Assembly: GCA_963783305.1 (NCBI GenBank)
Contig: CAWAMW010000015.1
Coordinates: 128,001 to 192,000, forward strand
Direction of reading: 5' to 3'
Length of the DNA: 64,000 nt
DNA from: an uncultured Gemmatimonadales bacterium
Lineage (GTDB): Bacteria > Gemmatimonadota > Gemmatimonadetes > Longimicrobiales > RSA9
This document shows, in pieces, positions 4,949 to 11,176 of this stretch. Positions within the stretch are counted from its first letter, which is position 1; each line of letters opens with the position of its first letter. The position numbers and the translations under genes are program-made. The notes under the pieces were generated by a model. The model was not told the origin of the DNA and made no database searches. It saw only the letters and a list, made by a program, of their open reading frames with translations.

Positions 4949-6211
4949 TCAGGGAAAGAGCTTCGCCACCGTCGAAGCGATGTGCACGAGCCTCGATGCC
5001 TCCCTCCCCCGGACGGAGCCTTCCGCCAGCGCCGCGAGGAACGCGCGAGGCTCCTTCTCGAACGAGGGGACTTCCACCCAGGCGTTGCCGATCTCACCCA
5101 GAGTGTGGGCGTCGGACCCCGCACCGAGGGGGAGCGACCGCTCCCGGGCCCAGGCCTGCGCGCGCGCGTTCAGCGCGGAATCGTGCAGCCGGGCGTTGAA
5201 TCCCTCCACGGCGTCCACGAGATCCTCGATCTCGGGGAGGATCCGACCGCCGCCTCCCTTCCCGCCCGCGAAGGGGTGGGGCACGTACACCAGTCCTCCC
5301 TGCTCGTGGATCCGCTCGCAGGTCTCCCGCGCGGGTGTACCCTTTGGGATCCACTCGCGGAGGAACAGACCGGTGATGTCCACGCCCTCGGCGGTCTTCA
5401 CCTCTTCGCCGGGGATCACGCGATCGGGGAAGCGTTCGGCCAGATCGAGGGCCGCCTCGATCTCGTTGTGGTCGGTGACGCAGATCCAGCCGAGCCCCAC
5501 TTCGGCGGCCCGCTCCACCACGGCAACGGGATCGCTCCGGCAGTCGAAGGAGATCCGGGTGTGGATGTGGAGGTCCACCCGGACCCGACCGGCGGAAGCG
5601 GCCTCCTCGTGGACGCCCGACCTGCGCCGGATCTCTCGCCATGCGGCGTCCGCCCGGTCCCGAAGCGCCTCCAGGGACGCCGTGTTCTCCACCACCAGGT
5701 CAGAGCGGGCGCGCTTCTCTTCCGTGGGTATCTGCGCGTCGATCATCGCACGGGCCTCGGCTGAAGTCAGCCCGCGGTCCCGGACCAGCCGTTCGGCACG
5801 GACATCGGCGGGCGCGTCGACCAGGACGATCAGGTCGAACTCGTCCTGCATCCCCACTTCGAACAGGAGCGGGATGTCGTGCACCACGATCCGCTCACCC
5901 GCCTCCAGGAGCCGCGCCTCCTCCAACTCGCGCAGGCGTGCAACTTCGGGGTGGACGATGGACTCCAGCCGGCGCCGGGCTGCCCGGTCAGCGAAGACCA
6001 TGCGGCGGAGCGCCGCCCGGTCCAGCTGCCCCTTGAGTATGACACCGTCGCCGAACGCTTCCCGCACGCGGGCCAGGCCCGCGCTGCCCGGCTTCACCGC
6101 CGCCCGGGCGAGCACATCGGCATCGACCACCGCGGCGCCCTGCTCAGCCCAGCTCCGCGCTACGGAGGATTTCCCGCTGGCGACATTGCCCGTCAGTCCG
6201 ACCCGATACAC
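4949..6211 (-). CDS. coaE: Dephospho-CoA kinase fused to a C-terminal PHP-family phosphoesterase domain
   Basis: N-terminal GLTGNVASGKS, DAD, LDR, HP, IPLLFE; C-terminal DLHIHT, TDHN, GEE, PHP, GSDAH; one uninterrupted ORF. Confidence 0.88.
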   Translation of the reverse strand: MYRVGLTGNVASGKSSVARSWAEQGAAVVDADVLARAAVKPGSAGLARVREAFGDGVILKGQLDRAALRRMVFADRAARRRLESIVHPEVARLRELEEARLLEAGERIVVHDIPLLFEVGMQDEFDLIVLVDAPADVRAERLVRDRGLTSAEARAMIDAQIPTEEKRARSDLVVENTASLEALRDRADAAWREIRRRSGVHEEAASAGRVRVDLHIHTRISFDCRSDPVAVVERAAEVGLGWICVTDHNEIEAALDLAERFPDRVIPGEEVKTAEGVDITGLFLREWIPKGTPARETCERIHEQGGLVYVPHPFAGGKGGGGRILPEIEDLVDAVEGFNARLHDSALNARAQAWARERSLPLGAGSDAHTLGEIGNAWVEVPSFEKEPRAFLAALAEGSVRGREASRLVHIASTVAKLFP

Positions 6212-7058: not shown

Positions 7059-9236
7059 ATGAGCATGGCGACGAAGGGATCCAGTAAGAAGAAAGCGAAG
7101 GGCGGCGCCCGCAAGGATTCTTCCAGATCCGGTAAGGTGCGAAAGAACGGCGGACCCGACAAGGCGACCCAGCTCGGCTTCTACCGCACCATGTTCTCGG
7201 CGCGGCGTACCGACGACAAGGAGATCGGGCTCAAGCGCCAGAACAAGATCTTCTTCCAGATCTCGGGCGCGGGCCACGAAGCGATCCAGGTGGCTGTGGC
7301 GCACCACCTCCGACCGGGGAAGGACTGGGCGTATCTCTACTACCGGGACCGCGCCCTCTCCCAGGGATTGGGGATGACGCCGTACGAGCACCTGCTCCAG
7401 GCGGTGGGTGCGGAATCGGATCCGGCGAGCGGCGGTCGCCAGATGCCGTCGCACTGGGGCCACCGCGACCTGCGCATCGTCTCCACCTCCTCCCCCACGG
7501 GCACCCAGTTCCTGCAGTCGGTGGGAACGGCAGAGGGCGCGTGGCGCGCCTCGCTGCTGGACGAGATGCGCGAGAAGATCGAAGACTTCGAGGACGACGA
7601 GGTCGTGCTATGCACCACCGGCGAAGGACAGACCTCGGAGGGGGAGTTCTGGGAGGCGTTGAACACCGCGTCCAACCTGAAGCTGCCGGTCATCTTCCTC
7701 ATAGAAGACAATGGCTATGCGATCTCCGTTCCCCGCGAAGTCGGCATCTCCGGCGGGAGCGTGAGCAAACTGGTCAGCGGGTTCCCCGACCTGCTGATCG
7801 AGGAGGTGGACGGGACGGACGTGCTGGCCAGCGTCGAGGCGGCGGAGAAGGTCGTCCGGTACGCCCGCGAGCGAAAGGGTCCGGCACTGCTGCACGCCCG
7901 GGTCATCCGCCCGTACTCGCACTCCATGTCCGATGACGAGCGGATGTACCGGACGGAGGAGGAGCGCGAGGCCGAGGCCACGAGGGACCCGCTTGTGACG
8001 TTCCGTCGCTACCTGGAGGAGGAGGGGGGGGTAACCGCGGAGGAGCTGGAGGCCCTCGAGAAGGAGGTGAACGACGAGATCAATGATGCCTCCGACCGGG
8101 CCCTCGAGCAGCCGCAGCCGGGGCCGGAAACGGCCATGAAATGGCTGTACTCCGAGGACGTGGACGCCACCTCTGACGATTTCGACACCGAGGACTCGCC
8201 CTCCTTCGAGGGTGACGAGACCACCATGGTGGATCTGCTCAACTCGTGCATGCGCAACGAGATGGAGCGGGACCCGCGGATCGTGGTGTTCGGCGAGGAT
8301 GTGGCGGATGTGAGTCGGGAGGATCTTCTCGACAAGGTGAAGGGCAAGGGCGGCGTCTTCAAGGTGACCGCCGGGCTCCAGCGGACCTTCGGCGGGACAC
8401 GGGTCTTCAACTCACCGTTGGCCGAGGCGAACATCGTGGGACGCGCCATCGGCATGGCCGTGCGGGGCCTCAGGCCCGTGGTCGAGATCCAGTTCTTCGA
8501 TTACATCTGGCCGGCGTTCATGCAGATCCGCAACGAGCTGGCCACCATGCGGTACCGGAGCGGTGGCGCCTGGGATGCGCCGGTCGTGATCCGGGTCACC
8601 TATGGGGGCTACCTCAAGGGCGGTTCCATCTATCACAGCCAGACCGGTGAAACGCTCTTCACGCACTCCCCGGGGCTGCGCGTGGTCATGCCATCCACCG
8701 CCCTCGATGCCGCGGGCCTGCTCCGTACGGCCATCCGCTCGGAAGACCCTGTCATCTTCCTCGAGCACAAGCACCTCTACCGCCAGGTCTACAACAAGAG
8801 CCCCTATCCCGGGCCCGAGTTCATGATCCCGTTCGGCAAGGCGAAGGTCGTGCGGGAGGGCACGGACCTGACCGTCGTGACCTGCGGGGCGGTGGTAAAG
8901 CGGTCGCTGGACGCCGCCAAGATCGCGGAGCAGGATGGCGTGAGCGTGGAGGTGATCGACCTGCGGTCCCTGAACCCGCTCGACATGGAGACCATCGCCG
9001 CGAGCGTCAAGAAGACCAACAAGGTGGTGGTGGCCTACGAGGACAGCCTGAGCTGGGGCATAGGGAGCGAGATCAGCGCCCGCATCGCCAGTGACCTGTT
9101 CGAGTGGCTCGATGGCCCCGTCAGGCGCGTGGCCAGCCTGGACACCTGGGTCGCGTACGCACCGCAGCTCGAGGCCGCGATCCTGCCGAACGCCGACGAC
9201 GTCCTGAAGGCCATCCGGGAGCTGGCGGACTACTAG
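7059..9236 (+). CDS. Fused E1 alpha/beta 2-oxoacid (probably 2-oxoisovalerate) dehydrogenase
   Basis: GAGHEA, YYRDR, GRQMPSH, TPP motif [31 protein letters not shown] and transketolase C domain. Confidence 0.92.
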
Positions 9237-9239
9237 GCT

Positions 9240-9397
9240 GGGCTCGCCTTCGGCTCGCGGGGGGCGGCCTAATCGGCCGCGGAGAGCGGCCTATCGGCCG
9301 CGGGGGGCTCGCCTTCGGCTCGCGGAGAGCGGCCTATCGGCCGCGGGGGGCTCGCCTTCGGCTCGCGGAGAGCGGCCTACGGCCGCGGGGGGCTCGC
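9240..9397. repeat. Tandem array of about 7 hairpin units of 20-22 nt (left arm of an inverted pair)
   Basis: Units A=ggggctcgccttcggctcgcgg and B=agagcggcctatcggccgcgg in the order A B B A B A B. Confidence 0.9.
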
Positions 9398-9792
9398 TAT
9401 CGCTCGCGGAAGTAGATGGCGCGGCGGGTGAGGATTCGGGTGGCGCGGAGAAGGAGGGAGCGGAGGCGCTGCTCCGCTGAATCGGCGACCAGCCCCCTCC
9501 GGGCGAGGAAGCTGAGGATGGCGGCCGTCTCGGTGGCGGAGCGGCAGGCGTAGCGGTAAAAGCGCGCCTTGTCGCCACGACTGTATTCCCCGTGGGCTTC
9601 CGCGGTGTTCGTCAGCACCGACAGGCCCGCGCGGCCCAGTTGGGATGCACCCCACGGTCGCCCACGGCGGATGCGCAGCGCCACCTCATCCGCCATCTCC
9701 GCGATCTCCATAGCCAGCCCGAACACCTCCTCGTCCTCGAACCTGAAGTGCTCCGCCGCCCCCGCACGTTGTCCCGCCGCTCGATCACCCAT
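9397..9792 (-). CDS. Four-helix-bundle protein (TIGR02436 / 23S rRNA IVP-like)
   Basis: FRFEDEEVF...SQLGRAGLSVLTNTAEAHGEYSRGDKARFYRYACRSATE matches the family pattern Q..RA..S...N.AEG...D..RF..AR.S..E. Confidence 0.85.
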   Translation of the reverse strand: MGDRAAGQRAGAAEHFRFEDEEVFGLAMEIAEMADEVALRIRRGRPWGASQLGRAGLSVLTNTAEAHGEYSRGDKARFYRYACRSATETAAILSFLARRGLVADSAEQRLRSLLLRATRILTRRAIYFRER

Positions 9793-9844
9793 ACCCGAAG
9801 TTCATGCCGCTCCGTGGGCAAAGCCATGGTCCAATGAGCCCGGC

Positions 9845-10047
9845 GAGCGCAGCGAGCCCTCCGCGGCCGAAGGCGAACCCGCCGCGGCCGAAGGCCGCCC
9901 TCCGCGAGCCGAAGGCGAGCCCTCCGCGGCCGAAGGCCGCCCTCCGCGAGCCGAAGGCGAACCCTCCGCGGCCGAAGGCCGCCCTCCGCGAGCCGAAGGC
10001 GAGCCCTCCGCGGCCGAAGGCCGCCCCCCGCGGAGAGCGCCAGCGAG
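9845..10047. repeat. Tandem array with a 42-nt period (right arm, reverse complement of 9240-9397)
   Basis: Repeats of ccctccgcggccgaaggccg + ccctccgcgagccgaaggcgaR, about 4 periods; bracketed by gagcgc(c)agcgag motifs. Confidence 0.9.
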
Positions 10048-10069
10048 CCGCCCCCCCTATCTTCCCGCC

Positions 10070-11176
10070 ATGACCGCCACGTTCCGCTTCCTCAGAGAGT
10101 TCCTGCGCCCGCGGCCGCACGCGGTGGTGCGAGAGGAGACGTCGTACGAACGGGATGGACGGCGGCTCCCGGCCACGCTCTACCGTCCAGCATCCGGGCG
10201 TCCCGACCGGCCGCTCCCGGGGTGGATCACGCTCCACGGTCTCACCCGCAGGGGCCGCGAGCATCCGTCCCTTGACCGATTAGCCAGGGCGGTAGCGGCA
10301 TCGGGGGCGGTGGTGCTGGTACCGGATCTGCCGGAGTGGCGCGAGCTGCACATCGCGCCGGAGACGACGGTCGCGACGATCAAGGCGGCGGTGCTGGAGC
10401 TCGACGGGAGGCCCCTGACGGAGGCCGGCCGGATCGGCGTGATCGGCTTCTCGTTCGGTGCGACGCAGGCGCTGGTGGCGGCCACGGACCCGGCACTGCG
10501 CAGCCACCTTGCGGGAGTGGTGGCGTGGGGCGGCTACGCGGACATTTTCCAGGCCACCCGGTTCGCGTTCCTGGGGAGACACGAGCTGGACGGGACGGAA
10601 TACCACCTCGACCCGGACCCCTATGGCCGCTGGATCCTGGCGGGTAACTACCTGACGCTTCTCCCGGAGCACGCGGACGACCACGCGCTGGCGGAGGCGC
10701 TCCTCGGTCTGGCGCAGGACGTGGGCCGGTTGGAGATCATGTCGTGGAGCCCGGAAACGGACCCCATGAAGGTGGCCGCGCGCTCCGGCCTGACCCGCGT
10801 CCAGCAAGAAGTCTTCGACCTGGTGGCGCCTCCGGCGGATTCGTCGTACGGAGCGGAGGAGCGGCGTCGAGTGGAGGAGCTGGTGCGGCGAATGACGGAG
10901 CGGGCGGTGGACCGGGAGCCGCTGCTGGAGGCGCGGCCCTACCTGAGCGGGGTGCCCGTCCCGGTCTGTCTCGCCCATGGGCGAGAGGATCGGCTCATGC
11001 CGTGGACGGAGATGATCCGGCTCAGGCGCCAGCTGCCGGAGGACCGGGTGCGCTACAGCGCTGTCACCAGCCTCTTCTCCCACTCCTTCGGAGAGCGCCG
11101 GTTTCCCTCCCCTGCCGTCCTTCTGGAGATGGTGCGCTTCGTTCGCCTGATCAGCCGGATGCTCCGTCTGATCTGA
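10070..11176 (+). CDS. Alpha/beta hydrolase fold protein
   Basis: LHG, GFSFG nucleophile elbow, HGREDR; likely start is the ATG at 10070, after the repeat array. Confidence 0.8.
   Translation: MTATFRFLREFLRPRPHAVVREETSYERDGRRLPATLYRPASGRPDRPLPGWITLHGLTRRGREHPSLDRLARAVAASGAVVLVPDLPEWRELHIAPETTVATIKAAVLELDGRPLTEAGRIGVIGFSFGATQALVAATDPALRSHLAGVVAWGGYADIFQATRFAFLGRHELDGTEYHLDPDPYGRWILAGNYLTLLPEHADDHALAEALLGLAQDVGRLEIMSWSPETDPMKVAARSGLTRVQQEVFDLVAPPADSSYGAEERRRVEELVRRMTERAVDREPLLEARPYLSGVPVPVCLAHGREDRLMPWTEMIRLRRQLPEDRVRYSAVTSLFSHSFGERRFPSPAVLLEMVRFVRLISRMLRLI

Follow-up and report, generated by a model that had tools for sequence, protein, structure and literature searches.

The window analysed here is the whole stretch of 64,000 nucleotides from an uncultured Gemmatimonadales bacterium. 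Within it, a four-helix-bundle gene (TIGR02436/PF05635) coding for 131 amino acids was observed as an open frame at positions 9397-9792 of the minus strand, antisense between two plus-strand host genes, namely a fused E1 alpha/beta 2-oxoacid dehydrogenase gene on the left (7059-9236) and an alpha/beta hydrolase gene on the right (10070-11176; its Pfam matches are weak, near or below the cut-offs). The gene is enclosed by two arrays of mini-hairpin units, to which no strand is assigned. The left arm (9240-9409) starts after a gap of 3 nt from the E1 stop codon and contains 8 units with a 43-bp period, which are separated by a purine-rich spacer word and present their GNA-type G-N(1-3)-A loops on the minus strand. 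The right arm (9843-10049) contains 9 units and a degenerate terminal unit (10033-10048), has a 42-bp period and presents its GNA loops on the plus strand. It ends 8 nt 5' of a host -10-like box (10058-10063, plus strand) that lies 6 nt 5' of the hydrolase start and marks the right limit of the cassette. A unique leader of 50 nt (9793-9842, minus strand), located between the right arm and the start codon of the four-helix-bundle gene, likely holds the gene's own promoter.

The preliminary description, that of a gene placed between inverted mini-hairpin arrays, was confirmed as a whole. The arms are mutually inverted, as it had stated, with complementary stretches of 74 nt (88%) and 66 nt (89%), and no direct-repeat relation between the left and right arrays was found in the array comparison. 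The stop codon of the gene does fall inside a repeat unit, the innermost left one (9392-9407). When positions 9237-10070 were folded as RNA, a check proposed at that time, the energy was -587.7 kcal/mol, for which a comparison with 20 shuffles gave z = -18; the fold contains 141 long-range pairs, and its longest unbroken stretch of Watson-Crick pairs measures 23. Across the family, a GCYATBS word was found at most 90 nt upstream of the four-helix-bundle gene in 64 of 106 loci (9 and 5 in control windows) and as a near match only at the gene studied here; it may represent a promoter element or a candidate binding site. Gene calls in the genome were made with a simple hexamer model and their starts are approximate. 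Elsewhere in the window (4949-6211, minus strand), a single frame encodes a fusion of a dephospho-CoA kinase (CoaE) and a PHP domain protein.

The product of the 9397-9792 gene matches TIGR02436 with 49.5 bits (cut-off 24) and PF05635 with 48 (cut-off 33.8), and it has a shorter C-terminus than its closest orthologues. Its predicted structure consists of four long helices (pLDDT 95.6) and resembles Xcc0516 (TM 0.77-0.89), BT_0352 and, more weakly, Avd (4dwl, TM 0.71/0.85), so that the fold announced as common to Avd was recovered in the predicted model. In the part matched to Avd the product is basic, with 22 K+R against 16 D+E, but the identity is 13% and there is no sequence-level match. According to the available part of 10.1101/344556, Avd forms pentamers that are positively charged and bind a specific segment of non-coding RNA. 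PF05635 is a common family, and in the literature searched no function was found for it, Avd being the sole relative with one. Unlike diversity-generating retroelements, whose accessory protein Avd is treated in 10.1101/344556 and PMC10053308 and which are defined by a reverse transcriptase together with template and variable repeats, the source genome (G000, 96% complete) has no RVT_1 match anywhere, in keeping with the earlier remark that no reverse transcriptase is nearby, and no template/variable repeat was seen.

Mini-hairpin units and their polarity

All 17 listed units form hairpins whose G-N(1-3)-A loops have one polarity; about half of them carry tandem GA/GA mismatches and the rest are perfect. 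The initial reading as short hairpins holds, but the 3-bp stem then proposed is weak, and the other strand gives GC-GA-stem-GNA-stem-GA-GC. Genome-wide, 167 units of the form GC-GA-stem-GN(1-2)A-stem-GA-GC were counted against 4-10 in three codon-size shuffles, an occurrence that rules out a local oddity. GA/GA was the commonest 2x2 loop (86 of 553, the next reaching 32), and GAA, GCA and GTA made up 90 of the 198 three-base loops. The four-base loops (n = 127) were mostly GNYA, with GTCA found 30 times, GCCA 19 and GACA 9, and the RNA-type GAAA was found 7 times. Judged from their sequence, the units carry the signature of DNA mini-hairpins, with loops of the DNA type and not of the GNRA type of RNA, and the GA/GA mismatches would be expected from established chemistry to form sheared pairs.

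Hairpins of the GCGN(N)AGC kind are much more stable as DNA than as RNA and are found at single-stranded DNA origins and promoters, where they serve as single-stranded DNA signals, according to the available portion of a 2026 review (PMC13037366). The core hairpins of the cassette are identical to the GNA/GNNA mini-hairpins presented in that portion, including one named for ssiA, but the cassette has tandem chromosomal arrays, extra GA/GA pairs and no origin or phage context. An Rfam search returned no match near the gathering score and four matches up to E = 5, from which the Gut-1 RNA motif (RF01706) was absent. Small dispersed repeats (SDR) of cyanobacteria, reportedly described by Elhai in 2008, are said to be structured units of 20-30 nt within short tandem repeats. 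By that description, and not by sequence, they are similar to the present units, which are also structured and embedded in short tandem repeats; we know of no link between SDR and a four-helix-bundle gene. SDR are named in the accessible part of PMC3116915.

The polarity of the arms is fixed. In each of the 6 two-strand clusters of the genome, whichever strand is read, the GNA version forms the 3' arm, and at least five hairpins in this polarity were found at 19 of 110 family loci, against a single locus with the opposite polarity only. In single arrays, polarity does not follow transcription (15/32 at co-directional sites; 13/19 for the hairpin families), and arrays locked to transcription were thus not seen. 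Many arrays begin at most about 25 nt from a stop codon.

The E1-hydrolase junction and the arms across the family

The junction was examined in 29 hydrolase loci of relatives and in 20 longer stretches, together with family searches. Empty sites, for which a search had been suggested, do exist: the junction is bare, with 12-117 nt, in six genomes. Most other relatives have an aminotransferase gene or other genes after E1, without inverted arms. A sense-orientation orthologue follows E1 in G006 (55%), where it has hairpin arms, and in G082, G030 and G023 (43-45%), where the arms are made of hexamers. At the same place, G003 holds a 5'-truncated antisense remnant, G068 an antisense copy and G004 an empty arm pair. 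Left and right arms are collinear between G003 and G006 and the gene directions are opposite, as recombination between inverted arms would give; the gene flips at a second shared site too. The empty pair of G004 matches only the arms of the orthologue that G004 has at another site (74/97, against at most 30 for five other G004 loci). As far as these sequences tell, the cassette is old at the E1-hydrolase junction, where it flips, decays, empties and sometimes relocates.

The reading as a discrete cassette gains support from the states of the junction in relatives, which include bare sites, empty arms, a decayed gene and a flipped gene, and from the relocated orthologue. Sites in common with another genome were found for 60 of 110 loci, 17 loci lying at one junction; many of the genes are therefore long-term residents and not fresh insertions, and mobility is slow. 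Antisense orientation was rejected as a defining trait, with 29 antisense against 23 sense genes among co-directional neighbours and flips at two sites. In a comparison with MITEs and insertion sequences, the empty sites of relatives proved too diverged to align to the base and no target-site duplication could be read. An arm-driven loss of the adjacent aminotransferase gene is plausible but is not claimed; the gene is also missing at arm-less junctions.

Several other sites were observed in parallel. At L037 and L039 (in G035 and G004), single GNA-hairpin arrays lie directly 5' of the hydrolase -10 box, with no adjoining four-helix-bundle gene. L005 and 16 other loci occupy the junction of two methionine-synthase-type genes (a label given by eye) with four-helix-bundle genes of several clades in both orientations, as in an old site with apparent replacement. 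Finally, long direct repeats with scores of 176-591 are present on both sides of the gene at L105, L106, L123, L140, L149, L161 and L167, which suggests tandem empty and loaded copies of the cassette.

The comparison across the family covered 119 distinct loci, of which 102 have full flanks. Arms scoring at least 40 were found at 71 of these 102 loci against 2 of 102 shuffles, and 31 loci score below 40. For the 71 loci with arms, which include related and hence non-independent sequences and among which some "different sites" could be short-contig artefacts, Mantel r was 0.185 on raw arms and 0.244 once the hairpins were masked, the highest of 2000 permutations reaching 0.158; arm similarity between pairs at different sites went from 0.07 to 0.09, 0.14 and 0.23 as protein identity rises. 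Pairs at the same site with less than 40% protein identity were at background (0.045), the arms of same-genome paralogues were no more alike than those of cross-genome pairs, and in some pairs of close proteins the arms differ (similarity 0.0 at 63% identity). Across the 71 loci, the arm sequence follows the protein and not the host or the site, a pattern that plain co-inheritance of the cassette gives as well as recognition would.

After masking of the hairpins, the remaining spacer word agrees with the purely tandem arms of sister proteins; for instance, a TTCGAA-type word occurs with and without hairpins within one clade. The hairpin arms appear in at least five separate places, among unrelated protein clades, on a quick tree of which 44 of 107 inner branches are open. 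An expansion of the generic hairpin was seen in 11 of 73 genomes, with 74 copies in G000, 90 in G005 and at most 10 in most. Control of the arms by the host genome was rejected for the spacer word, same-genome similarity not exceeding cross-genome similarity, and accepted for the hairpin. With the word following the protein and the hairpin being patchy by genome, the arm, in which short spacer words alternate with GNA-loop mini-hairpins, therefore consists of two layers, the word being tied to the protein and the hairpin to the host.

Six genes and six repeat families in one genome

Six TIGR02436 matches were found in the source genome. The inverted arrays expected around the paralogues were seen by eye at 6 of 6; five score at least 40, and for the sixth the score is 35, with shuffles reaching 22 at most. 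One of these paralogues is flanked by heptamer arms. Among the called genes of 300-480 nt, 7 of 537 have inverted flanks scoring at least 40, namely four of this family, two GxxExxY genes and one unrelated gene. The six arm sets have 0-15 nine-mers in common, and 74 of 210 other non-genic arrays of at least 28 nt assign to the six families (16, 16, 16, 14, 9 and 3). The family of the 9397-9792 locus accounts for 14 gene-less arrays, one of them by a near tie (113 against 111). Among the 136 arrays left unassigned there are clusters of 10, 8, 6 and 4, of which the one with 6 members looks like the arms flanking two GxxExxY genes when judged by eye. The repeat families were defined from the six loci, so that the one-to-one pattern is partly built in and the chance of 0.022 for six different families is partly circular. 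As for the possibility, raised beforehand, that the units are ordinary genome-wide repeats unrelated to the gene family, they do occur genome-wide, but in families matched one-to-one to the family genes.

In other genomes, G067 contains 164 copies of the arm word of one locus, together with empty inverted pairs, and G030 contains 24 copies of the word of another gene, each word having 0 in 4 other genomes searched. The exact unit of the 9397-9792 locus occurs 11 times in G000 and 0-2 times in each of 72 relatives; its repeat family is therefore young.

At L002 (G000:C12:103800-104466), nested arms show repeats of both polarities on each side, and in the empty pairs of this family the polarity is that of the sub-pairs, unlike in the hairpin families. 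A possible seventh paralogue (C11:35429-35895) has, by eye, the look of a small remnant that overlaps a different gene at its end; arrays were not seen around it. L210 (G000:C12:134500-146500) contains two GxxExxY (TIGR04256) genes, each between inverted arms whose repeat has a period of 9 nt; copies of these arms that are paired but gene-less lie in tandem nearby, as a parallel gene-plus-arms system.

Readings of the gene-plus-arms arrangement

In the intervening sequences (IVS) of 23S rRNA, as covered by the available part of PMC4990558, a 28-bp stem with tandem heptamers is cut by RNase III. The cassette has in common with the IVS that bear an S23p ORF (PMC4990558, same part) the protein family, complementary ends that form a stem around a PF05635 ORF, and tandem short repeats at the arm. 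It differs from them in being intergenic between protein genes instead of inserted in 23S rRNA, in having arms that are arrays of 170-200 nt and not a 28-bp stem, in carrying its gene in either orientation, in the dispersal of gene-less copies and in belonging to a lineage in which RNase III was not found. The preliminary description had considered an IVS-like module cut from a polycistronic mRNA by RNase III, with which these likenesses agree; moreover, the 23-bp perfect run would be long enough in principle for the enzyme. RNase III, however, was not detected in G000 by TIGR02191, by tblastn or by a profile built from three phylum members. In those three members RNase III follows fabF, and in G000 another gene occupies this slot 95 nt on, inside the contig (G000:C7:625168-626439). 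None of the 73 family genomes yielded RNase III, although 62 of them match a four-helix-bundle protein, and neither did any of 134 genomes of eight phylum families, against 15 of 16 genomes in four other families; among reference genomes used as controls, the search matched 8-9 of 14. No description of a loss of RNase III in the phylum was encountered in the literature searched.

Furthermore, a TAnnnT -10-like box precedes the hydrolase start by 5-9 nt at 19 of 30 loci (L007-L036), the present one among them, with a background of 0.7%, and it is missing in three tight E1-hydrolase junctions. This box is likely a leaderless promoter, and with such a box of its own the hydrolase would likely not need read-through here. 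Given also that the gene flips, excision by RNase III is very improbable and largely refuted, cutting by another nuclease being conceivable. Since RNase III was not found in the lineage, the arms likely work as folded DNA, likely recognised by the protein.

A function at the RNA level could nevertheless be conceived without RNase III. REP arrays stabilise or insulate neighbouring messages, and the arms of the cassette might pair in read-through or antisense transcripts, with the protein binding that RNA in the manner of Avd and the unit stabilising or insulating the messages around it. The stem is long and very stable as RNA on either strand, no terminator-like site was found after E1, many arrays start close to a stop codon, and Avd binds its RNA specifically (10.1101/344556, in the part available). 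On the other side, single arrays are not locked to the transcribed strand, the loops are of the DNA type, and a perfect arm duplex is not maintained, because the arms keep different periods and loops. Taken together, we regard such an RNA module as unlikely.

The RAYT/REP/REPIN systems, as presented in the accessible part of PMC3116915, are similar to the cassette in having one gene per repeat family, placed among its own repeats, and in their dispersed extragenic palindromes and inverted doublets of fixed polarity. On the contrary, the cassette gene encodes a four-helix bundle with no HUH/Y1 domain, and it flips, decays and relocates; its repeats are tandem arrays, mostly single, and not the conserved doublets described in the same part of PMC3116915. 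Although one repeat family per gene was found, a repeat-flanked Y1 gene was not, nor a prevalence of inverted doublets: among 73 rows, 53 arrays are unambiguous singles, and inverted pairs also exist.

Single-stranded DNA hairpins suit HUH enzymes, and the genome does contain two Y1/HUH genes of about 320 aa with intact HUH motifs (L087 and L088; G000:C2:249787 and C6:66261). By eye, their upstream regions have a short A/T-rich motif in common. An element of the REPIN kind, non-autonomous and mobilised in trans by a Y1/RAYT transposase or by a reverse transcriptase, would also account for the empty inverted pairs. Yet neither Y1 gene is flanked by arms, as judged by eye, and no arm-flanked transposase was found in the genome; Y1 genes and expanded hairpins do not go together across genomes (8/11 against 29/62, p = 0.19); the single-contig genome G079 has at least ten four-helix-bundle genes and no Y1 match; RVT_1 is not matched in G000; and singles outnumber pairs. 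Movement in trans by such an enzyme is thus improbable and unsupported.

The cassette is built like an ORF-bearing IVS and organised like a RAYT/REP pair, and it lacks a defining feature of each. The reading that we favour, and to which we give about an even chance, is that of a gene-plus-arms module in which the arms act as folded single-stranded DNA, the protein binds its own repeat word, host enzymes disperse the copies, and slippage and recombination shape the arms. In this scheme, the arms would grow by slippage, each with its own period and loops, and recombination between them would flip or delete the gene, leaving empty pairs and single arrays. An Avd-like ring would bind its cognate word on single-stranded nucleic acid, by which gene and repeat family would stay matched. 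Dispersal would fall to host recombination or repair enzymes because the cassette has no catalytic gene. The whole would be organised in a RAYT/REP-like way, with one gene per family and a binding protein in the place of the transposase.

Several observations weigh against this binding model. Co-inheritance gives the same arm-protein pattern, arms score below 40 at 31 of 102 loci and some close proteins have unlike arms; Avd, the sole relative with a function in the literature searched, binds RNA; many genes (60/110) are long-term residents of slow mobility; and ViennaRNA gave the GNA strand no advantage, although this program does not score sheared pairs or GNA loops. It could also be argued that self-amplifying repeats were captured together with the gene and inherited with it, the protein being unrelated to the arms and recognising nothing in them. 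The generic hairpin is patchy across genera and present in at least five protein clades, and it therefore spreads independently of any one gene; in addition, the genes are often long-term residents, and GxxExxY genes are armed too. Such flanks, however, were found in only 1 of 531 other small genes, the spacer word persists beneath the hairpins within a clade, and paralogues of the same genome do not share their arms, so a role of the repeats as mere passengers seems to us unlikely. The binding model is the one extended below.

In the literature searched, subscription journals and supplements aside, no description of repeat arms around four-helix-bundle genes outside 23S rRNA was found. What is new at this locus is the six-to-six pairing of genes and repeats in one genome, the two-layer arm, the series of flips and relocation, and the persistence of the arms where RNase III was not found. 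To our knowledge, short intergenic tandem repeats have no known driver. In a broader and doubtful, though possible, extension, four-helix-bundle genes, with GxxExxY genes in parallel, might be the specificity factors of an undescribed class of repeat systems, in which non-catalytic Avd-like rings would read their own single-stranded DNA word and thus maintain and seed genome-wide repeat families. The 23S IVS would then represent the case that landed in rRNA, and the GNA unit would be an invader of the arrays.

A lineage in which RNase III was not found constitutes a natural experiment, in which the arms are parted from the sole mechanism that has been published for them, and the six gene-repeat pairs placed side by side in one genome make their specificity directly comparable. 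If the protein reads its repeat, it would be a compact sequence-specific single-strand binder, which would explain how Avd came to select the RNA of diversity-generating retroelements. If the broader view is true, the ORFs of intervening sequences, the short intergenic tandem repeats and the ancestor of Avd would have one origin.
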